Source: Hyphomicrobiaceae bacterium (GTDB taxonomy: Bacteria; Pseudomonadota; Alphaproteobacteria; Rhizobiales; Hyphomicrobiaceae). Taken from it: a DNA stretch of 64,000 bases. The DNA lies in contig JBGANK010000003.1 of the NCBI GenBank assembly GCA_044222395.1, positions 54,525-118,524 of the forward strand, read 5' to 3'. The translations under genes were made by a program, and so were the position numbers. A model generated the notes under the pieces. It was given only the letters and a program-made list of their open reading frames with translations, was not told where the DNA came from and made no database searches. Below, in pieces: positions 4,609-47,575 of this stretch. The stretch's first letter is position 1; the number at the start of each line of letters is the position of its first letter.

Positions 4609-6819
4609 TCACAGGAAGCTGTAGGGGTCGATGTCGATCGACAGCCTCAGATCGCCTTTGATCGGCGGAACTGCTTCCATCCAGGCGCGGATATAGCCCT
4701 GGATGTCCAACTCGCGTGCGGCCTTGACCAGCAACCGCCAGCGATGACGGCCGCGAATGATGGCGATCGGCGCCTCGGCCGGACCCAGCACCTGGATCTT
4801 TTCTGAAAACGGCGCGCGGCGAGCTATGTCGCGAGCGACGCTCTCGGCCAGGCTCTTGTCGCGGGCGGAGACGATGAGCGCCGCCAATCGTCCGTAAGGC
4901 GGCAGCAGACCGCGCTGGCGGATGCGGATCTCCTGCTCGAGGAATGCATCGCGATCGCCGGAGATGATGGCCTGCATGACGGGATGATCGGGATTGTAGG
5001 TCTGCACCAAACCGCGGCCACCGGCGAAGGCACGGCCGGCGCGCCCCGTCACCTGATGCAGAAGCTGGAACGTGCGCTCGCCAGCGCGCGGATCAGCGCC
5101 TTGCGCGAGACCGAGGTCGCCATCGACGACGCCGACAAGGGCGAGATCGGGGAAGTGATGGCCCTTGGCGACGATTTGCGTGCCAATGATGATGTCGGCC
5201 TCGCGGTTCTCGATGCGCTTGATGATGTCGCGCATCTCGACAAGGCCCGGAATGAGGTCGGAGGACAGGAGCACGACACGCGCAGCAGGAAATCGCTCGG
5301 CCACTTCCTCCGCAACGCGCTCGACGCCAGGTCCGCAGGCGACAAGCCCGCCTTCCTCACCGCACTTTGAACATTTCTCCGGTACCGGTAACGAGAAGCC
5401 GCAATGGTGGCAGTGCAGCCGCTTGCGGAAGCGATGCTCGACGAGCCAGGCGGTGCACTGCGGGCATTCGATGCGATGGCCGCAGGCGCGGCACAGCGTC
5501 AACGGCGCGTAACCGCGACGGTTGAGGAACAAGAGTGACTGCCGGCTTTTTTCCAACGTCTCCGTCATCGCCTCGACGAGGCGCGGCGCCAGCCAGCGAC
5601 CCTTGTCGGGCTGCTCGATGCGCAGGTCGATGCCAGTGACTTCGGGAAGCTCGGTGCCCGAATAGCGGCCGGGCAGGACGACATGGCGATAGCGTCCGGT
5701 GCGGGCGTTGACGTGGCTTTCGATCGACGGCGTGGCGGAGGCAAGAACGACCGGGAAGTTCCCGATCGAGCCGCGCACCACGGCCATATCGCGCGCCTGG
5801 TAGTGTACGCGGTCATCCTGCTTGAACGACGCGTCGTGCTCCTCATCGACGATAACGAGGCCGAGATCGGGATAGGGCAGGAAGAGCGCCGAGCGGGCGC
5901 CGACGACGACGCGCGCTTCGCCACGCGCAACCCATTTCCAGATGCGTCCGCGGTCGGCCGAGGTGAGAGCCGAGTGCCACTCGACAGGCGCGCCGCCAAA
6001 ACGCGCTTCGAAGCGGCCCATGAACTGGCTGGTCAGCGCGATCTCGGGCAGCATGATGAGCGCCTGTTTGCCCTGCTCCAGGGTGCGCGCGACGGCCTCG
6101 AAATAGACTTCCGTCTTGCCCGATCCAGTGACGCCATCGAGCAGCGTGACCGAGAAATTCTCCGCATCAACGACACTCGTCATTGCCATGGCGGCAGCGG
6201 CCTGCGCGTCATTGAAGGCGATGTCCTTGTGGCGCGGATCCAGGTGCGCGGGTTTGCGCTCGGGGATCGCCACGTCGACTAGATTGCCCGAGGCGACTAG
6301 GCCGTCGACGACGCCGGTCGAGCAGCCGGCCGATTCGGCGAGCGCCGACTTGACGCGGATGAGCCCATCGCAGGCGATGTCCAGCACGCGCTGGCGCGCC
6401 GGCGTCATGCGCGGTGGATCCGCGGCCTCGGCGACATAACGCACGCCGTAGCGCGGCTTGTCAGGCTCGAAAACGGATTGCGCGCTCATCATCATGCGCA
6501 CCACCATGCCGAGCGGGCTCAACGTATAGCGCGCGATCCATTCGGCAAAGCGCAACGAGATCTGCGGCAGCGGAGGAACGGCTAGAAGGTGGTCGATTGC
6601 TTTGATCTTCTTGGCTTCGACCGGCTTCTGTTCCCCCAGCGGCCGATCCCAGACCACGCCGATGCGCCGCTGCGGACCGAACGGGACCACCACGAACGCG
6701 CCTGGTTCAATTGGTGGAATGTCATCGCCTTCGGGCAGGCGATAGTCGTAGGTCTGGTCGAGGGCGACGGGCAGCACCACGGGCACCAGCGCCGCTTCTG
6801 GTGGCTGTTGGTCACCCAT
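4609..6819 (-). CDS. priA: primosomal protein N' (replication restart helicase PriA)
   Basis: Walker A GVTGSGKTE, DEEH box (VIVDEEHD), Cys-rich zinc region CRACGHRIECPQC...CHHCG...CSKCG. ATG at 6819 preferred to TTG at 6873. Confidence 0.93.
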   Translation of the reverse strand: MGDQQPPEAALVPVVLPVALDQTYDYRLPEGDDIPPIEPGAFVVVPFGPQRRIGVVWDRPLGEQKPVEAKKIKAIDHLLAVPPLPQISLRFAEWIARYTLSPLGMVVRMMMSAQSVFEPDKPRYGVRYVAEAADPPRMTPARQRVLDIACDGLIRVKSALAESAGCSTGVVDGLVASGNLVDVAIPERKPAHLDPRHKDIAFNDAQAAAAMAMTSVVDAENFSVTLLDGVTGSGKTEVYFEAVARTLEQGKQALIMLPEIALTSQFMGRFEARFGGAPVEWHSALTSADRGRIWKWVARGEARVVVGARSALFLPYPDLGLVIVDEEHDASFKQDDRVHYQARDMAVVRGSIGNFPVVLASATPSIESHVNARTGRYRHVVLPGRYSGTELPEVTGIDLRIEQPDKGRWLAPRLVEAMTETLEKSRQSLLFLNRRGYAPLTLCRACGHRIECPQCTAWLVEHRFRKRLHCHHCGFSLPVPEKCSKCGEEGGLVACGPGVERVAEEVAERFPAARVVLLSSDLIPGLVEMRDIIKRIENREADIIIGTQIVAKGHHFPDLALVGVVDGDLGLAQGADPRAGERTFQLLHQVTGRAGRAFAGGRGLVQTYNPDHPVMQAIISGDRDAFLEQEIRIRQRGLLPPYGRLAALIVSARDKSLAESVARDIARRAPFSEKIQVLGPAEAPIAIIRGRHRWRLLVKAARELDIQGYIRAWMEAVPPIKGDLRLSIDIDPYSFL

Positions 6820-16460: not shown

Positions 16461-17096
16461 TTAGCGCATGGCGACGGTCTTGTGCTGATCCATCGCCGCC
16501 TTAAGCCCGGCAAACTCGGCAAGCGGGATCTCGCCGTTGTGGTCCTTGCCATCGCGAGTCTTCAAGCGGAACACCCACATCTTTTGCTTCATGTCGGCGG
16601 GCGTCGCCGTCTCGGCGACGCGGGCGAACTCGGCTGCTGGCAATTCGAACCCGACATGCTCGACGCGAATGCAGCTGTGCTCATGCTTCTTCCTGCAGTC
16701 GCTGGTGCGCGTGATGCGCTTGACGGGCGCGCTCGCCAGGGGCGTACCGAAGTTGGCCTGGAACGGCTCGCGCCAGATGTCGCCCTTGTAGGCGAGCACG
16801 ACATAGACCTGATAGGTGCGCTGCCCGGTCTTCTTGTCGAGGAAGGCGCGCAGGAACTGATCCTCGGTGACGATCCCCATCAGCCCGCGCTTCTCGGCAA
16901 AGCCCTTCTCGGTCGAGAACATCGCCTTGGTCTCGAGGGCGTCGTCCTTGATGGTGACGGACTTGGCGAAGTGATCGGCGGGAAGCATGCGGGCCTCGGC
17001 CAGCTGCTGCTCCTTCATCTGGGCAGCGCAACCTGACAGTGGCAGTGCCGCCACCATTGCCAACGCCACCAACGCATTCGACGCGCAACGCCCCAC
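16461..17096 (-). CDS. lipoprotein of unknown function (paralog 1)
   Basis: GTG start. Lipobox LPLSGC. Clearly similar along its length to the next gene. Confidence 0.75.
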   Translation of the reverse strand: MGRCASNALVALAMVAALPLSGCAAQMKEQQLAEARMLPADHFAKSVTIKDDALETKAMFSTEKGFAEKRGLMGIVTEDQFLRAFLDKKTGQRTYQVYVVLAYKGDIWREPFQANFGTPLASAPVKRITRTSDCRKKHEHSCIRVEHVGFELPAAEFARVAETATPADMKQKMWVFRLKTRDGKDHNGEIPLAEFAGLKAAMDQHKTVAMR

Positions 17097-17217: not shown

Positions 17218-17859
17218 TCAACGCGAGGCAACGGGCTTGTGCGCGTTCATGGCCGACTGCAAGCCGGCGAATTCGTCCAGTGGCAGCTCACCCGCGTAGT
17301 CCTGGCCATCGCGGTTCTTGAGCTTGAACGTCCACTTCGTGGACTGCACTTCCTCCGGCGACGGCTTGGTGACGACCCGGACGAACTCCGACTCCGGCAA
17401 CTCGAATGTCACTTGCTCGATGCGATGGCATCCATAAGGTCTGGTCGCGAGGCAATTGTTCTTGCGCGACACGCGCGAAGTGGGATGCGTCGCCAGCGGT
17501 GTGCCGAAAGTTGCCTGATAAGGATCGCGCCAGCGGTCGCTCTTGTAGGTCATGCTGACGACGACCTGATAGCGGCGCGTGCCGGTCGCCTTGTCGAGAA
17601 ACGCGCGCAAGTATTGACGCTGGGTGTCGGTGCCGTCAGGGCTTCGGCGCTCCTGAGAGACCTTCTCGGTCGAGAAGATGGCGGCCTTGTCCTGCGTATC
17701 GTCCTTGACGGTGACTGCCTTGGCGGATTCGGGCGGCTGCTCGACGACCGAGGTGGCAAAGGATTCCTGCTGCTCCTGCAGGCCGTTGCTGCAGCCGGCG
17801 AGAGCCAACAACAATACGGAAGGCAGCATGGCTCGCCATGCTGTTGTCGCCGCCAACAT
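17218..17859 (-). CDS. lipoprotein of unknown function (paralog 2)
   Basis: Lipobox LALAGC. Shares FSTEK..., YLRAFLDK.TG.R.YQV, FGTPLA, C...C pair and LAEFAGL/LDEFAGL blocks with 16461-17096. Confidence 0.75.
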   Translation of the reverse strand: MLAATTAWRAMLPSVLLLALAGCSNGLQEQQESFATSVVEQPPESAKAVTVKDDTQDKAAIFSTEKVSQERRSPDGTDTQRQYLRAFLDKATGTRRYQVVVSMTYKSDRWRDPYQATFGTPLATHPTSRVSRKNNCLATRPYGCHRIEQVTFELPESEFVRVVTKPSPEEVQSTKWTFKLKNRDGQDYAGELPLDEFAGLQSAMNAHKPVASR

Positions 17860-18178: not shown

Positions 18179-18910
18179 TCACGCGGCGCTACTCAAGATC
18201 GCCAAGGCTTCCTTGGGATCGATGCGGCCATCGTAGAGAGCGCGGCCGGAGATGGCGCCTTCGAGCATCGCATATTCGCGTTTCGTCAGCGCCTTGATGT
18301 CGTCGATGGAAGCGAGACCGCCCGAGGCGATGACCGGGATCGATACCGCGCGCGCCAGCTCCGCCGTGGCAGGCAGGTTCAAGCCCTTCAACACGCCATC
18401 GCGCTCGATGTCGGTATAGATGATGGCGGCAACACCGACATCCTCAAAGCGGCGCGCCAAGTCAATCGCGGTCAGCTCACTCGTCTCTGCCCATCCCTCG
18501 ACGGCGACCTTGCCGCCCTTGGCATCGATGCCGACGGCAATGCGATCGGGAAACTTCTTGCACGCGTCGCGCACCAGATCGGGATTGCGCACGGCGATGG
18601 TGCCCAGGATGACGCGGCGCACGCCCTTGCCAAGCCACATCTCGATCGTCTCGAGATTGCGGATGCCGCCGCCCAGCTGCGCCGGAATCGTGATGGCCTT
18701 CAGGATCGCATCGACTGCTGCGGCATTGACCGGCTTGCCTTCGAATGCGCCGTTCAAATCGACGATGTGCAGGTACTTGAAACCCTGCGCCTGGAACAAC
18801 CGTGCCTGGGCCGCTGGATCATCGTTGAAGACGGTCGCTTGATCCATCTCGCCCAGCTTCAAGCGGACGCACTGGCCATCCTTGAGATCGATTGCAGGAA
18901 ACAGGATCAA
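18179..18910 (-). CDS. hisA: 1-(5-phosphoribosyl)-5-[(5-phosphoribosylamino)methylideneamino]imidazole-4-carboxamide isomerase
   Basis: [17 protein letters not shown]... and C-terminal SGGLASIDD...GRALYDG HisA signatures. Confidence 0.93.
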
Positions 18911-19006
18911 ATCACACCCACCAGATCTTGGAGTTGCAGCCCCAACGCGGCGCTATATCTGCCACGCGCGAAGGCGCCTTGAGATTGCTGTCATTGGCAG
19001 CGACAA

Positions 19007-19390
19007 ATGGCATCCGAGCGCCAGCGTCAAGTCTCCGTTGAAGAAGTTTCGATGCACGACCACCGCCAAGACTCCGCACTGCTGCTGCCCGATCAGGCGC
19101 ATGTGGCCCTGACTCAAGATGCACCCGTGAAACTGACCGAGGCGGAGGCGGTCGAGATCTGGATCGCTCGCTGGCTACGGGTACCGCTGAAGGCGCTAGT
19201 GGCGCGCTACGGGTGCCATTCGCGCCGGCTCTACGAGGTGTGGTGGGGCGAGCGGTTCCCCGACAGCCGGGCAAAGGCCGAGGAGGTATTCCGGGGGCGC
19301 TATCCGGGCCTGACCGACCGGACCAGCTACGGCTACCGGCGGATACCCCGGGCGGCGGCGCGCAAGGATCAGATGAGCCTGTTTTCATAA
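19007..19390 (+). CDS. orphan small protein A, putative HTH DNA-binding
   Basis: High GC3. KLTEAEAVEIWIARWLRVPLKALVARYGCHSRRLYEVWWGERFP resembles short phage-type HTH modules. The start could be ATG 19007 or ATG 19052. Confidence 0.6.
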   Translation: MASERQRQVSVEEVSMHDHRQDSALLLPDQAHVALTQDAPVKLTEAEAVEIWIARWLRVPLKALVARYGCHSRRLYEVWWGERFPDSRAKAEEVFRGRYPGLTDRTSYGYRRIPRAAARKDQMSLFS

Positions 19391-19458
19391 CGAATTGTTG
19401 GGGAGTTAGGCTCCCGTGTGGCATTTCCGGGGCGAACGTGAATCGTTTGCCCTGCCCA

Positions 19459-19552
19459 GAACCGAAAAAGAACAAAATTCGAACCGATGCTGGACAAGCC
19501 CGATGATTCGTGGCATGTTCTTCCTATGTTCCAGAGCGGAACTCGACTGTTC
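19459..19552. promoter_or_regulatory. array of GAAC/GTTC tetramers with LexA-box (N7) spacing
   Basis: GAAC-N7-GAAC-N7-GAAC at 19459-19484. GTTC-N7-GTTC-N7-GAAC-N6-GTTC at 19517-19552. Located 58-151 nt upstream of orphan gene B. Confidence 0.55.
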
Positions 19553-19609
19553 TCCGGGAGTTCGTACCGCGTCTCTCTGCCAAGCCCCCCGTTAGACGAG
19601 AGAGCCCCC

Positions 19610-19978
19610 ATGCGCACGTTCCTGATCTCCTACGACCTAGCAAATCCAGTGCAGAACAAGCACGCGATCGCGCAATCCATTATGTCAGCAGGCGAACGGT
19701 GGGCGCGACCGCTGGAGAGCACCTGGTACGTCACGTCGGAGGACGACGAGGCGAGTCTGGCCCAACGCCTCGGTCCGCTGCTCGACACCGATGACGGCCT
19801 GCTGATCCAGTCGGTTGACGAGCAAGCGGTGCTCACCAACACCTCGCTGCGCTGGTTCCGCCAGCGCCGTCAGGGTGCACCAGCGTCCGGGATGCGCGGC
19901 AATGTGGTCGCCTTCCCGGCGCCGGTGCCCCCGGTTGCCGAGGTGGAGCCGGAGCTGCCGTTCGCCAAGGCGAGCTGA
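19610..19978 (+). CDS. orphan small protein B (122 aa)
   Basis: Very high GC3 from ATG 19610, while the upstream in-frame stretch has lower GC3 and contains the repeat array. GAGAGAG purine tract precedes the ATG. No family recognised. Confidence 0.65.
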   Translation: MRTFLISYDLANPVQNKHAIAQSIMSAGERWARPLESTWYVTSEDDEASLAQRLGPLLDTDDGLLIQSVDEQAVLTNTSLRWFRQRRQGAPASGMRGNVVAFPAPVPPVAEVEPELPFAKAS

Positions 19979-20120
19979 GCCGCCCAGTTCGGATTTTCAA
20001 TCGCGGTGTGTGGCGCGAACTGCGGTGTCTGCAACAGCGCTCTTTGCCCGCCGCGCCCAGTTCTTCGTGTCGAGTGACCTTGGTCTTGTTGGTTTTCACG
20101 TCCCTGTCTCTTGTCCCCAG

Positions 20121-20162
20121 CCCCTGCCGGCTCCGCCCCAACCCCAGAACAGCCGGCAGGGG
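20121..20162. other. perfect 12-bp stem hairpin between orphan genes B and C
   Basis: CCCCTGCCGGCT-N18-AGCCGGCAGGGG. No U tract follows it. Confidence 0.6.
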
Positions 20163-20254
20163 ATCCCCGCTCCCCGCTGTATCCCTCAGAATGCCGCGTG
20201 ACTGAAATTTCCGACGCCGAGCTTCCCCCAAAAGCGCCCCCCGGAGTAGCCCCC

Positions 20255-20584
20255 ATGAAGACCTTCGCCTGCGCCTCAGCCCTCCCCGAGACCAAAACCT
20301 ATATCGTCACCCACACGCAAAAGGACCCCGCCCAGACCTATGGCCTGGTCGCCGAAGGCCTACGTCTGGTGTCCGCCGAGTGCACAAAAATAGACCGCAA
20401 CGTCTGGCTGGTGCGCTCTGCGGCCAGTGCCGACGGTGTGGCCAATGCGGTGATGCCGGGTATCGGTCGCCGCGATGAAATCCGCGTCATGGAGGTGGGC
20501 GCGGAGATGGTCCACTATCAGGCCTCGCGCGTGTGGAACATGGCGCGGCTCGATGCTGACGAGTTGCTGGCGCTGCGGCACTGA
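20255..20584 (+). CDS. orphan small protein C (109 aa)
   Basis: High GC3. GGAG lies 9 nt before the ATG. Same AGCCCCC-ATG start context as gene B. No family recognised. Confidence 0.6.
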   Translation: MKTFACASALPETKTYIVTHTQKDPAQTYGLVAEGLRLVSAECTKIDRNVWLVRSAASADGVANAVMPGIGRRDEIRVMEVGAEMVHYQASRVWNMARLDADELLALRH

Positions 20585-20674
20585 TCCGCGGCGCGAAGTC
20601 TCTTGATCGTCGCAGTTGGAAAGGCTGCAGCGCACCTCTGGCTTCGCACAACGCCAAGTAGCCAAACATGCAGG

Positions 20675-20706
20675 AAGGAGCGGCACCACGCCCCGTGCCG
20701 CTCCTT
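20675..20706 (+). terminator. candidate terminator hairpin after orphan gene C
   Basis: AAGGAGCGGCAC-N8-GTGCCGCTCCTT 12-bp stem. The downstream tract is only weakly T-rich. Confidence 0.4.
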
Positions 20707-22808: not shown

Positions 22809-23462
22809 TCACGGCCTCCACTTGAGGAAGTTGGCGATCAGCTTCAGGCCGAGGCTCTGGCTTTTCTCGGGATGAAACTGAGTGCCGGCCATGTTGTCCT
22901 TGGCGACAAATGCGGTGATCGGGCCGCCGTAGTTGGTGCACGCCACGACATTCGCCTCGCTTGCCGCGACGAAGTGATAGGAGTGCACGAAATAGGCGTG
23001 CAAGCCGTTGGGACCGGTCGGTATGCCGGCGAGCAGCGCGTGCGGGGTGACGACGTCCAAGGTGTTCCAGCCCATGTGCGGGATCTTGAGCGAAGGATCA
23101 CGTGGCTCAATCGCGCGCACCTCGCCCTTGATCCAGCCCAACCCGTCCGTCACCTCGAACTCGCGGCCGCGCTCGCTCATCAGCTGCATGCCGACGCAGA
23201 TGCCGAAGAACGGGTGGCCCTTGACGCGCACCGCTTCCTCGAGCGCGTCGCGCATTCCCGGCACGGATTCCAGTCCGCGCTTGCAATCCGCATAGGCGCC
23301 TACGCCCGGCAGCACAACGCGATCGGCCTTCGCCACAACTTCGGGCATTGAGGTGAGCACGGGCTCCAGGGCACTGCCGCTTTCGCGGGCGGCGCGTTCG
23401 AACGCCTTCAATGCCGAATGAAGATTGCCCGACCCGTAGTCGATGATGGCAACTTGCTGCAT
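22809..23462 (-). CDS. hisH: imidazole glycerol phosphate synthase, glutamine amidotransferase subunit
   Basis: [25 protein letters not shown] catalytic Cys, and the C-terminal TQFHPEKS motif. Confidence 0.94.
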
Positions 23463-36089: not shown

Positions 36090-36569
36090 TCAGTCGTCCT
36101 CGAAGTAGCCCCGCTCCGCATCGAGATGACACGCTTTGCAGTCGGCAACCGACTTGGCGCCACGGCGCTTCAGCGTGGCGGGCGAGATGCGGCCCTTCTT
36201 GTCGTGCTTGCGCACGAACCAGGGCTGCTCGGAGATCCGGATTCTATCGCCAACCGTGCCTCGGCCCTCGCGCGCCGCGTTGTTCACGAGGTACTGCGTG
36301 ATCTTGCCGGCGCTGTCGGCATCAAGCTCGGCGTTGGCGCCGAAGTGATTCTTCAGGTCTGCCATCATCGCCTTCCACGACGATGCCGGCAGCAGACCGG
36401 CCGGAAAAATCATGTGGCAGGCGCTGCATTCCTTAGCCGTGAGTTGATCCCTGACAGGAGCAACGCGTTCGTATTCGTCTGCGAGTGCAAAGCCACCGAA
36501 TGCGGCGGCTGACACAAAGGCGACGGCGCCGTAAAGGCGCGTTGCACTACAAAGCTTCGTGGTTCTCAT
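36090..36569 (-). CDS. diheme cytochrome c (DHC family)
   Basis: Signal peptide plus two CxxCH motifs (CSACH, CKACH). C-terminal CKACHLDAERGYFEDD. Confidence 0.8.
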   Translation of the reverse strand: MRTTKLCSATRLYGAVAFVSAAAFGGFALADEYERVAPVRDQLTAKECSACHMIFPAGLLPASSWKAMMADLKNHFGANAELDADSAGKITQYLVNNAAREGRGTVGDRIRISEQPWFVRKHDKKGRISPATLKRRGAKSVADCKACHLDAERGYFEDD

Positions 36570-36601
36570 CTTGTCCTTCCAGTCATCGAAGTCACATCTA
36601 C

Positions 36602-43439: not shown

Positions 43440-43760
43440 TTACTTCTTCTCATCTTTCTTCTTGGCGTCGCCCGACATACCGGACATGCCGCCCATGGCC
43501 TTGAGACGCTGCTCGGCCTCGGCGGGAGAGCGTCCTTCCATGCCGACCATGTTGTCAGGCTGCATTCCCGACATGCCGCTCATGCCCTTCTGACCAGACA
43601 TTCCCGACATGCCACCCATGCCGCTCATGCCCTTCTGGTCGCCCGACATTCCGGACATGCCGCCCATACCGCTCATGCCTTTTTGCTCTTGAGCCGATGC
43701 CGCAGTGGCGATGGCGCAGGAAACAAGTGCAGCACCAGCAAGCTTCAGGATCTTCCACAT
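43440..43760 (-). CDS. secreted Met/Gly/Ser-rich repeat protein, copy 1 (106 aa)
   Basis: Signal peptide MWKILKLAGAALVSCAIATAASA, then GMSGMGGMSGMSG(D)QK repeats and a Lys/Glu tail. GGGAGAA RBS. Confidence 0.75.
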   Translation of the reverse strand: MWKILKLAGAALVSCAIATAASAQEQKGMSGMGGMSGMSGDQKGMSGMGGMSGMSGQKGMSGMSGMQPDNMVGMEGRSPAEAEQRLKAMGGMSGMSGDAKKKDEKK

Positions 43761-44354: not shown

Positions 44355-44855
44355 TTACTTCTTCTCGTCCTTCTTCTCGTCCTTCTTGGCGTCGCCCGAC
44401 ATGCCCGACATGCCACCCATGCCGCTCATGCCCTTCTGGCCGGACATGCCCGACATGCCACCCATGCCACTCATGCCCTTCTGATCGCCAGACATGCCAG
44501 ACATGCCACCCATGCCGCTCATGCCCTTCTGATCGCCGGACATGCCAGACATGCCACCCATGCCGCTCATGCCCTTCTGATCGCCGGACATGCCAGACAT
44601 GCCACCCATGCCGCTCATGCCCTTCTGGCCGGACATGCCAGACATGCCGCCCATTCCACTCATACCCTTCTGATCGCCAGACATACCGCTCATGCCCTTC
44701 TGATCACCGGACATGCCAGACATGCCCTTCTGATCGCCGGACATGCCAGACATGCCGCCCATGCCGCTCATGCCCTTCTGCTCTTCAGCCGTCGCCGCAG
44801 TGGCGAGGGCGCAAGAGATAAGGGCAGCACCAGCAAGCTTGAGGATCTTCGACAT
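44355..44855 (-). CDS. secreted Met/Gly/Ser-rich repeat protein, copy 2 (166 aa)
   Basis: Signal peptide MSKILKLAGAALISCALATAATA. Nine GMSGM(GGMSGM)SG(D)QK units and a KKDEKKDEKK tail. Confidence 0.75.
   Translation of the reverse strand: MSKILKLAGAALISCALATAATAEEQKGMSGMGGMSGMSGDQKGMSGMSGDQKGMSGMSGDQKGMSGMGGMSGMSGQKGMSGMGGMSGMSGDQKGMSGMGGMSGMSGDQKGMSGMGGMSGMSGDQKGMSGMGGMSGMSGQKGMSGMGGMSGMSGDAKKDEKKDEKK
44397..44777 (-). repeat. in-frame tandem repeat (48-nt / 30-nt units) inside Met-rich gene 2
   Basis: Two adjacent 48-nt units, 44511-44558 and 44559-44606, are identical. Neighbouring units differ by a few bases. Confidence 0.85.
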
Positions 44856-45932: not shown

Positions 45933-46150
45933 GCACAGCCAACAACAGGGCAGCATCAACCCTCGCCGGCTCTCACCCTATATCGCTCACCTGTGATCCT
46001 TCGCGATACCACGACGGTGGAGCGAATCCATTCGTTCAGCGGTGACGGCACCGCATTATTGCATTTCAGCGGCAAGAGTGATCGCAGTGCAGCGGCCGGC
46101 ATCCACTATTCTTGTTGCCGGGAACTTTGACTTGGCGGTCGCGCCTTCTT

Positions 46151-47575
46151 ATGCACGTCCCGGTGTGGCTGGCGCATGCTCGCCCGGTCCTTGCACGACC
46201 CGATACCGACCGTTCGCCGGAGAAGCACAGTTTGGCCCTGCCCAGACCCGAAAAAATAGTCGCAGGAGAACACGGGACCGCCAACTGGCCAGCCGATGTG
46301 ACGCCGACTGCGGAGTACGAGGCGGCTCTTGAATTCGCGCGCGCGGGCAATGGCAACCTGTTCGTCACCGGCCGCGCAGGCACCGGCAAATCGACGCTGC
46401 TTAGATGCACGCGCGATGCGCTTGCGACGGACGCGGTGGTGGTGGCGCCGACCGGCCTTGCGGCGGTCAACGTCGGCGGCCAAACGATCCATTCGTTTTT
46501 CGGCTTGCCGCCCCGGCTGATCCGCTCGGACGACATTCGCCGCAGCCGTAACGCCAGAGTGATGCGGCGGCTCCAGCTCTTGATCATCGACGAGATCTCG
46601 ATGGTGCGTTCGGACCTGATGGCGGCGATGGATGCGTCGCTCAGGCTGAACCGTGGACGTCCGCGCGAGCCGTTCGGCGGTGTGCGCCTGTTGATGTTCG
46701 GTGATCTGCACCAGCTGCCGCCTGTGGTGACCGACAACGAGGTGGCGGCACATCTTGAAAGCGAGCACGGCGGCCCGTTCTTTTTTTCCGTGCAGGCGTT
46801 GCGCGAGGGTGCGGGAACGTCGCTCCTGGAACTCGAGCAGGTTTTCCGCCAGCGCGACGAAGCGCTTCTCGGCGTACTCAACCGGGTGCGCAACGGCGAG
46901 GCGGACGAGACCGATCTGAAGACGCTCAACGCTCGCGTGAACCCGATCCGCACGCTGGGCGAAGGAGAGCCCTACGTGATCCTCACTCCCACCAACGCCG
47001 CAGCCCAGCGCATCAACATGGCCTATCTCGACGCGCTGCCGGCTCGCGCACAAACCTACGAGGCGGGTGTCACCGGCGAGTTCAACGCCGCCGCACAGCC
47101 GACCGACCAGATTCTGGTGCTCAAGGAGGGAGCCAAGGTCATCCTGCTGCGCAACGATCCCGACCGCCGCTGGGTCAACGGTACGATCGCGCGCATCGCG
47201 CGGCTGACGGAGCGGCAGGTGTTCATCGAGGTCAAAGGTCGCGAGTACGAGCTGGAGCCGGTATCATGGGAGAGCCGGCGCTATGCCTTCGATCAGGCTG
47301 CGGAAAAGGTGGTCGAAACGGTTGCGGGCACGTTCAAGCAGTTTCCGGTGCGGCTGGCCTGGGCGCTGACCATCCACAAGTCGCAGGGGCTGACGCTCGA
47401 CCAAGTCTATATCGACCTGGGGCGCGGCACTTTCGCGCATGGGCAGACTTACGTCGCATTATCCCGCTGCCGCTCACTCGACGGGCTGACGCTGGCGCGC
47501 GCCTTGCGGCCGAGCGACATTTTGTTCGATCCCGGCGTGATGGGATACCGGGACGTATTCTCGCGTCTTGAGTGA
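46151..47575 (+). CDS. SF1B (Pif1/RecD-like) DNA helicase
   Basis: Walker A GRAGTGKST, Walker B LLIIDEISMV, and C-terminal LTIHKSQGLTLDQVYIDL motif. The start is uncertain. Confidence 0.85.
   Translation: MHVPVWLAHARPVLARPDTDRSPEKHSLALPRPEKIVAGEHGTANWPADVTPTAEYEAALEFARAGNGNLFVTGRAGTGKSTLLRCTRDALATDAVVVAPTGLAAVNVGGQTIHSFFGLPPRLIRSDDIRRSRNARVMRRLQLLIIDEISMVRSDLMAAMDASLRLNRGRPREPFGGVRLLMFGDLHQLPPVVTDNEVAAHLESEHGGPFFFSVQALREGAGTSLLELEQVFRQRDEALLGVLNRVRNGEADETDLKTLNARVNPIRTLGEGEPYVILTPTNAAAQRINMAYLDALPARAQTYEAGVTGEFNAAAQPTDQILVLKEGAKVILLRNDPDRRWVNGTIARIARLTERQVFIEVKGREYELEPVSWESRRYAFDQAAEKVVETVAGTFKQFPVRLAWALTIHKSQGLTLDQVYIDLGRGTFAHGQTYVALSRCRSLDGLTLARALRPSDILFDPGVMGYRDVFSRLE

Follow-up and report, generated by a model that had tools for sequence, protein, structure and literature searches.

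The window analysed here is a 64-kb stretch of chromosomal DNA from a Hyphomicrobiaceae bacterium, and all positions are counted within it. Between two genes of its histidine cluster, hisA (18179-18910) and hisH (22809-23462), which are both encoded on the minus strand, lie three short plus-strand genes called A (19052-19390), B (19610-19978), and C (20255-20584). The DNA between A and B carries a series of GAAC and GTTC tetramers, which an earlier note on this stretch had described as seven elements of one phased array with the geometry of an alphaproteobacterial SOS box in front of an orphan operon. Two of the repeats formed by these tetramers, at 19470-19484 and 19517-19531, are very probably real LexA binding sites, and the best reading of the region is that B, which is predicted to contain a Cas2-like domain, would be a new member of the LexA regulon.

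Two LexA-type boxes in front of gene B

Direct reading of positions 19000-20700 recovers all seven tetramers in their places and with their spacings. GAAC is found at 19459, 19470, and 19481 with seven nucleotides (N7) between neighbours, and 32 nt further on GTTC is found at 19517, followed at N7 by GTTC at 19528, again at N7 by GAAC at 19539, and at N6 by GTTC at 19549. Two further tetramers had been missed, a GAAC at 19434 and a GTTC at 19560, the latter of which completes a second perfect GTTC-N7-GTTC at 19549-19563. The last of the seven is separated from the ATG of B (19610) by 57 nt, not by 58 nt as given before. On both strands of the entire window there are four GTTC-N7-GTTC repeats (19459-19473, 19470-19484, 19517-19531, and 19549-19563), all of them within the same 105 bp (19459-19563), compared to 1.98 expected window-wide, and the triple GAAC-N7-GAAC-N7-GAAC is present once compared to an expectation of 0.05. 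Therefore, the clustering of the tetramers is far above chance, as had been claimed in the earlier note. The context is poor for the repeats at 19459-19473 and 19549-19563.

The repeats were scored with a LexA weight matrix, and both strands of the window were scanned with it. The matrix was trained on 32 Caulobacter boxes supported by LexA chromatin immunoprecipitation sequencing (ChIP-seq) peaks (PMC12700426 S6 Table). This matrix is derived from Caulobacter and not from the SOS promoters of the host itself; its training boxes range from 14.2 to 25.0 bits with a median of 19.4 bits. SOS genes are found neither in the window nor in the DNA reached past its edges. The top match in the whole window, with 20.8 bits, is the distal box at 19470-19484 (GTTCGAATTTTGTTC on the minus strand), and the second, with 20.5 bits, is the proximal box at 19517-19531 (GTTCTTCCTATGTTC on the plus strand), so that both score above the training median. 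The third match, GTTCTCATCTTGTCC at 36562-36576, reaches 15.2 bits. It falls within cytochrome c genes of the opposite strand and probably represents a chance match, not another LexA-like site.

The agreement extends to the spacers. If the seven spacer positions are scored alone and thus independently of the tetramers, the distal box reaches 4.9, which equals the training median, and the proximal box 4.6, compared to -5.3 +/- 4.0 for random spacers (P ~0.007 each). Thirteen of the 15 positions of the proximal box are identical to those of GTTCTTGTTATGTTC, the top Caulobacter box. The boxes begin 93 and 140 nt before the ATG, close to the range in Caulobacter, where the distances from the coding sequence reach 107 nt.

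In Caulobacter and in alpha-proteobacteria generally, the LexA operator has been published as GTTCN7GTTC (PMC9578287; PMC3091678), and its definition in Caulobacter crescentus is attributed to da Rocha et al. 2008 by the papers that cite this work (PMC9578287, PMC12700426). The boxes in front of B share with this operator the tetramers and the N7 spacing, the T-rich 3' half of the spacer, and the T before the second GTTC. Their scores fall inside the Caulobacter range, and the boxes overlie the predicted core promoter no more than about 150 nt from the start codon. Two sites in one promoter are also found at Caulobacter CCNA_02004. Different from the known operators, the two boxes here have opposite orientations, a fixed distance of 47 bp, and a GANTC site between them, and the binding of a Hyphomicrobiaceae LexA to them is a prediction. 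Their target differs as well: in the literature we found no SOS regulon with a Cas2-like target, and nothing useful on LexA of Hyphomicrobium or on Cas2-like SOS genes. The same operator has reportedly been defined by the Barbe laboratory in Rhodobacter sphaeroides, Rhizobium etli, and Sinorhizobium meliloti. The alphaproteobacterial LexA-operator geometry proposed in the earlier note holds for 19470-19484 and 19517-19531, which both score like ChIP-backed Caulobacter sites.

Conservation of the boxes and of the putative promoter

For the comparison, 80 genome loci with B were retrieved, and four more (L081-L084) from a distant B subfamily with 39% identity bring the total to 84. All GAAC and GTTC tetramers were marked in the 230 nt before B, and the counts were taken over 81 sequences. 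A perfect GTTC-N7-GTTC is present at the proximal position in 80 of the 81 sequences and a perfect GAAC-N7-GAAC at the distal position in 72, most of the others being one mismatch off. Of 72 loci, 63 have the starts of the two boxes 47 bp apart and six have them 48 bp apart. With the proximal box as anchor, an ungapped profile gives the conserved block aaGAACAaaat..GAACt...gCTgGACa..ccc..tGA.TCgtGgCATGTTCTtccTAtGTTC, and the positions flanking this block contain nearly no information on either side. Both main boxes are thus kept in orthologous promoters, a comparison that the earlier note had proposed.

The boxes are also strongly concentrated at this place, with 167 in the 28 kb upstream of B versus 26 in the 582 kb that make up the rest of the loci. 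The best matrix match of the approximately 8-kb locus is located upstream of B in 82 of the 84 loci, the top two matches are both located there in 79, and a site of at least 14.2 bits is found on each strand upstream of B in 80 of these 84 Hyphomicrobiaceae and Devosia loci. The distinct spacers across the B loci have a mean spacer score of 3.8 to 3.9, and the 18 other perfect GTTC-N7-GTTC sites of the same loci one of -3.85.

Several copies of B have another neighbourhood. In two Devosia assemblies (L038 and L047) B keeps both boxes, and A and hisA are not adjacent. In the distant subfamily, L082 and L083 have the his context with A, and the other two copies are relocated and have no A or hisA nearby; in L081 B is found between an enoyl-CoA hydratase gene and a TonB-dependent receptor gene, and in L084 after a P450 gene. 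All four loci have one minus-strand and one plus-strand box with 16.8-20.8 bits, and these are the top two matches of each locus. The boxes of the relocated copies are 35 bp instead of 47 bp apart, and the distal box overlaps the -35 position. Because of the motif, the match of the spacers, the conservation, the fixed spacing, and the persistence after relocation, the two boxes are very probably bound by LexA, which we infer to be the binding protein.

The block between and within the boxes has features of a promoter. A -35-like hexamer, TGGACA (19491-19496, plus strand), is located at a conserved position, and its variants across the loci (TGGACA in 40, TGGACG in 14, TTTACA in six, TAGACA in four, TCGACA in two, and GTGACA in one) are all compatible with TTGACA. 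The assignment as a -35 element is tentative, as is that of the weak, TG-extended -10-like element TGgCATGTT (19511-19519, plus strand), which follows 17 nt after the hexamer. The latter is part of the conserved gtGgCATGTTC, which has the form TCGTGGCAT in 39 of 80 loci and related forms in others. Since TGGACA and the extended -10 have this 17-nt distance, transcription is predicted to start near A19526. Relative to this start, the distal box would extend from about -56 to -42 and the proximal box from about -9 to +6, overlapping the predicted -10 and start, and this would be a classic occluding arrangement. A sigma-54 promoter (TGGCAT...) was ruled out by inspection, there being no conserved GC at -12 across the loci, and a CtrA box (TTAA-N7-TTAAC) is absent from the conserved block.

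The same block contains a GANTC site, the sequence methylated by CcrM, at 19505-19509 within TGATTCG (19504-19510), at a predicted position of about -19. For a GcrA/CcrM-dependent promoter, a GANTC site is expected within 40 bp of the start, centred near -20 or at +2 to +30. The site is found exactly 12 nt before the proximal box in 72 of 80 loci, compared to a background of 1.35 sites per kb. G, A, T, and C are fixed across these 72 loci, and the middle base is free (T in 37, C in 26, and G in 16), which is the pattern expected of a conserved CcrM methylation site. TGATTCG is the reported best GcrA motif, more broadly YGAKTCK, and in GcrA-regulated promoters such sites are "narrowly centered around -20" (PMC4647560). 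The context YGAKTCK is found in 44 of the 74 loci having the GANTC site. Compared to the GcrA/CcrM-controlled sigma-70 promoters of Caulobacter (Haakonsen et al. 2015, PMC4647560), the TGATTCG/YGAKTCK context, the predicted location near -20, and the free middle base are therefore the same, but about 40% of the loci carry GACTC and thus fall outside YGAKTCK, and the position here is given relative to a predicted start. The site suggests an input of CcrM methylation and GcrA at the B promoter, and its predicted location at -19, in agreement with the -20 rule of GcrA, gives further support to the assignment of the -35 and -10 elements. The window contains neither a ccrM nor a gcrA gene; CcrM and GcrA are widespread in Alphaproteobacteria. 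To our knowledge, there is no described case of a GcrA-type GANTC site combined with flanking LexA boxes.

Proposed regulation of gene B and competing explanations

B is thus probably transcribed from a sigma-70-type promoter that is bracketed by two LexA operators, repressed within the SOS system, and possibly tuned by methylation. The distal operator would be placed just upstream of the -35-like hexamer and the proximal one over the -10 element and the start, and with LexA bound to both, RNA polymerase would be blocked as long as the cells are undamaged. Upon DNA damage, LexA would cleave itself, stimulated by RecA, and the promoter would become accessible for the expression of B. Through the GANTC site the output could in addition be tuned by CcrM methylation and GcrA, and thus by the state of replication and the cell cycle. 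The upstream GAAC at 19459 might provide a weak overlapping extra site. In this scheme, LexA as the binder, the positions of -35, -10, and start, and the role of methylation are the parts that we infer from the sequence.

Several points weigh against this interpretation. Taking GTTC-N7-GTTC as the LexA motif of Hyphomicrobiaceae relies on phylogenetic bracketing and on the work on Rhizobiales and Rhodobacter, and both the binding of LexA and the induction of B by damage are predictions from the sequence. The T-rich spacers could partly be explained by the AT-richness of promoter DNA. The counts overstate the number of independent events, many of the 84 loci being related to each other. A scan with a strict sigma-70 consensus called no promoter in the region, the -10 element is weak (CATGTT), and where the boxes and GANTC are placed relative to +1 is a prediction.

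A regulator other than LexA could act on B through direct repeats phased by one helical turn; candidates are an OmpR/PhoB-type response regulator or, as a local repressor or activator, protein A, and the earlier note had already named protein A and an OmpR-type regulator. We regard this as unlikely. It is true that winged-helix response regulators typically also use an 11-bp direct-repeat geometry, that A is adjacent in about 75 of the 80 loci and has a helical, helix-turn-helix-like core, and that a third tetramer, which is present at N6 or N7 in 29 loci, does not correspond to the standard LexA geometry; the binding of LexA is itself a prediction. However, both boxes match the LexA matrix not only in the tetramers but also in the spacers, and an unrelated regulator would have to mimic this twice by coincidence. 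In addition, the boxes are kept in L038, L047, L081, and L084, where A is not adjacent, and the modelled structure of A has no significant match to any DNA-binding family. Because the boxes persist in those loci, their retention fits better to a trans-acting global repressor such as LexA than to a repressor encoded by the neighbouring gene, and the binding of protein A to the array is disfavoured.

It is very unlikely that the tetramers, seven in the original count and eight with the one at 19560, form one cooperative platform for LexA or another protein that extends over promoter and leader. The whole set is present here in a roughly 11-bp register, and L003-L008 keep GAAC 19539 and GTTC 19560. 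However, the tetramers differ considerably in their conservation: four are found family-wide, and a fifth, the third GAAC of the distal group (19459), in 29 of 81 loci and thus in about one third, at N7 in some and at N6 in others. With its neighbour this GAAC forms a weak overlapping minus-strand box (19459-19473, GTTCTTTTTCGGTTC), whose 13.7 bits are just below the weakest Caulobacter box (14.2 bits) and whose spacer score is -2.2, and which we regard as auxiliary or marginal. The plus-strand tetramers GAAC 19539, GTTC 19549, and GTTC 19560 (together 19539-19563) are located in the predicted 5' untranslated region, outside the conserved operator, and are missing outside the closest clade. 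GAAC 19539 and GTTC 19560 are common to close relatives only, L003-L008 among them, and GTTC 19549 was seen, among the loci compared, in the window only. The box at 19549-19563 reaches only 7.1 bits with a spacer score of -8.75, the combination at 19528-19542 has -7.2 bits, and the step from 19539 to 19549 is N6. The conserved boxes are furthermore oppositely oriented and have the promoter elements between them, which argues for two sites and not for one array. The single phased array of seven tetramers therefore does not stand, and the three downstream tetramers appear incidental, as lineage-specific leader sequence that would have no conserved role.

The leader also contains possible pairing partners. 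GTTCC (19528-32) and GGAAC (19538-42) form a small inverted repeat, which is found in close relatives only, and GAACTC (19539-44) is complementary to GAGTTC (19558-63). A structured leader was rejected as the explanation of the downstream tetramers, with folding no better than that of shuffled sequences (z = -0.14); a consensus of the leader from eight close relatives contains one covarying pair and does not establish a structure. A search of the region against Rfam gave nothing relevant.

That the block is nothing but a promoter with an upstream A/T-rich element, its tetramers being conserved as promoter sequence, is scarcely credible: the proximal box does overlap the predicted -10 and start, with TAyGTT similar to a -10 hexamer, and the distal box is found at the position of an UP element, but promoter elements explain neither the invariant GAAC at exact N7 upstream of the -35, nor the match to the spacer preference of LexA, nor the retention of both boxes in the relocated copies despite the change of their spacing from 47 to 35 bp.

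Gene products and genomic surroundings

Gene B, the presumed regulated gene, encodes 122 residues and has 823 detectable homologues, mostly in assemblies of Hyphomicrobiaceae and Hyphomicrobium, and gene A has 346, almost all of them in the same groups. Thus, they are not orphan genes as the earlier note had called them. A cultured strain, Hyphomicrobium denitrificans 1NES1, has an orthologue of B (HYPDE_40128). The AlphaFold2 model of B has a predicted local distance difference test (pLDDT) score of 84 overall and of more than 95 over residues 1-70. It has a beta-alpha-beta-beta-alpha-beta fold (strands 2-9, 30-35, 38-43, and 63-69, helices 13-27 and 47-57), which forms a Cas2-like ferredoxin-fold domain from residue 1 to about 75. 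Its top Foldseek matches in the PDB are all Cas2 proteins (5h1o, 7f84, 8d3l, 4qr0, 4es1, 1zpw, and 3oq2; E-values of 3e-4 to 1e-2). At the level of the sequence profile the similarity to PDB Cas2 sequences is weak (E-values of 0.23-0.85), and against Pfam and NCBIfam B has no family match, Cas2 included. The first strand ends with YDL and aligns with YDI/YDV of Cas2; its aspartate, D9, is conserved in at least 90% of the orthologues and replaced by glutamate in some distant members.

B thus shares with Cas2 and with the stand-alone Cas2-like BPSL1038 of Burkholderia pseudomallei (PDB 7vxr) the ferredoxin-like fold and the acidic residue at the end of strand 1. Unlike Cas2, it has no Pfam Cas2 match, neither a cas1 gene nor a CRISPR or other repeat array was found in the window, an extra conserved tail of 45 residues is present, and B belongs to the chromosomal core genes of a single bacterial family. 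The conserved C-terminal part of the tail (about residues 90-122, 19880-19978) reads NVVAFP...EPELPFAKAS and still ends with A-[A/S/G] in distant members; speculatively, it might be a degradation (or interaction) signal. The remote superfamily of B contains 1198 cluster representatives, phrog_1090 included. DNA and protein searches of phage and plasmid collections gave no match to B, and viral contigs contain no orthologue. An origin of B from a mobile element was therefore rejected, and because relatives are lacking in the phage, plasmid, and viral collections, the phrog_1090 match is considered a remote superfamily link only.

Gene A encodes 112 residues according to the public assemblies, its open reading frame being open from 19007 on, and its product is helical and helix-turn-helix-like. 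The AlphaFold2 model contains five helices, and a structure search with it gave no significant fold match. The core of A is invariant, and its C-terminus has the pattern Q-[LM]-x-L-F, here QMSLFS (19370-19387). In 20 diverse homologues this pentapeptide is followed by 0 to 7 residues, the Q is invariant, and L and F are conserved in at least 90%. The pentapeptide that binds the beta sliding clamp is said to be QL[SD]LF, usually at a terminus, a motif ascribed to Dalrymple et al. in 2001. The C-terminus of A matches this pentapeptide, and docking to the clamp is thus putative. Upstream of A, between hisA and A, one Hyphomicrobium sub-clade carries a perfect GTTC-N7-GTTC with the sequence GTTCGTCAAGCGTTC (near 3447 in L023, L032, L035-L037, L041, L042, L044, and L048, at 3352 in L046, and at 1362 in L059). 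The spacer score of this site is poor (-2.8), and the best value in the hisA-A region of the window is only -8.0 bits.

The order hisA (minus), A and B (plus), and hisH (minus) is found in about 75 of the 80 loci and likewise in L082 and L083, and it splits the histidine gene cluster. Because this arrangement is kept so widely, the A-B pair looks like an old, fixed insertion and not like a recent island. In L083 an IS110-family transposase gene (4911-5909 of that locus) is inserted between the B-like gene and hisH, and thus the locus tolerates insertions downstream of B.

A further-reaching proposal, which is conceivable but rather doubtful, is that A and B constitute an undescribed DNA-damage module, fixed in the histidine gene cluster of Hyphomicrobiaceae, in which B would be a Cas2-like nuclease or toxin, A would dock to the clamp, and the promoter would integrate LexA with CcrM and GcrA. 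Both proteins might act at stalled or damaged replication forks, or in a self-destruction after severe damage similar to that by BapE, and the B tail ending with A-[S/A/G] might keep the level of B low through proteolysis. BapE (Bos et al. 2012, as cited in PMC13004042) is a Caulobacter DNA endonuclease induced in the SOS response; a wider group for comparison is that of small toxic proteins under SOS induction. BapE and B are both small proteins preceded by a strong LexA box, that of bapE (GTTCGCGTTATGTTC) being similar to the proximal box of B, and a nuclease role would be plausible for the Cas2-like fold modelled for B. In contrast to BapE, B is fixed beside a protein with a clamp motif in the his cluster, and the likeness of the two is one of operator and size.

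If only the operator assignment holds, B would be an ordinary addition to a known regulon. The main interest is in the conserved Cas2-like target, its pairing with a clamp-motif protein in the his cluster, and the promoter design combining LexA with GANTC. If LexA binds to these boxes, a stand-alone Cas2-like protein would be part of the SOS regulon throughout an alphaproteobacterial family. We know of no established job of such proteins outside CRISPR, and they would thereby gain a testable physiological context, DNA damage. The promoter would be a compact natural pairing of damage control by two LexA boxes and epigenetic cell-cycle control by a GcrA-type GANTC site. As HYPDE_40128 is present in a cultured strain, the prediction is directly testable.

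Gene C encodes 109 residues and is a divergent paralogue of B (18% identity); it matches phrog_1090 with an E-value of 4.5e-5, a family that B matches as well. The earlier note had considered C to be probably damage-inducible together with B, for which we found no support. There is no LexA-like site upstream of C (best score with the Caulobacter matrix -2.4 bits), a terminator-like hairpin follows B at 19971-19991, and C is present only in the closest relatives. For these reasons C is probably not under the control of the B operator.

The neighbourhood of B consists of hisA, A, C, a DUF2076 gene, and hisH, and the window further contains priA, a XerC/D-type recombinase gene, rplS, trxB, a DUF2628 gene, hisB, hslVU, argG, and typA. 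After hisA, two paralogous open reading frames of 211-213 residues are encoded on the minus strand (16461-17096 and 17218-17859). They have no family match, their products have signal-peptide or lipoprotein-like N-termini, and they have the motifs FSTEK...LRAFLDK.TG.R.YQV in common. In other loci hisF is found near this position; hisA of the window is not directly followed by it. An open reading frame of 166 residues (44355-44855, minus strand) and the stretch 43572-43679 contain a tandem repeat with a 48-nt period (about eight copies, 82% matches), which indicates that the former encodes a repetitive low-complexity protein. In addition, a gene for a Pif1-like helicase (PF05970, E-value of 1e-26) is found at 46112-47575 amid housekeeping genes.

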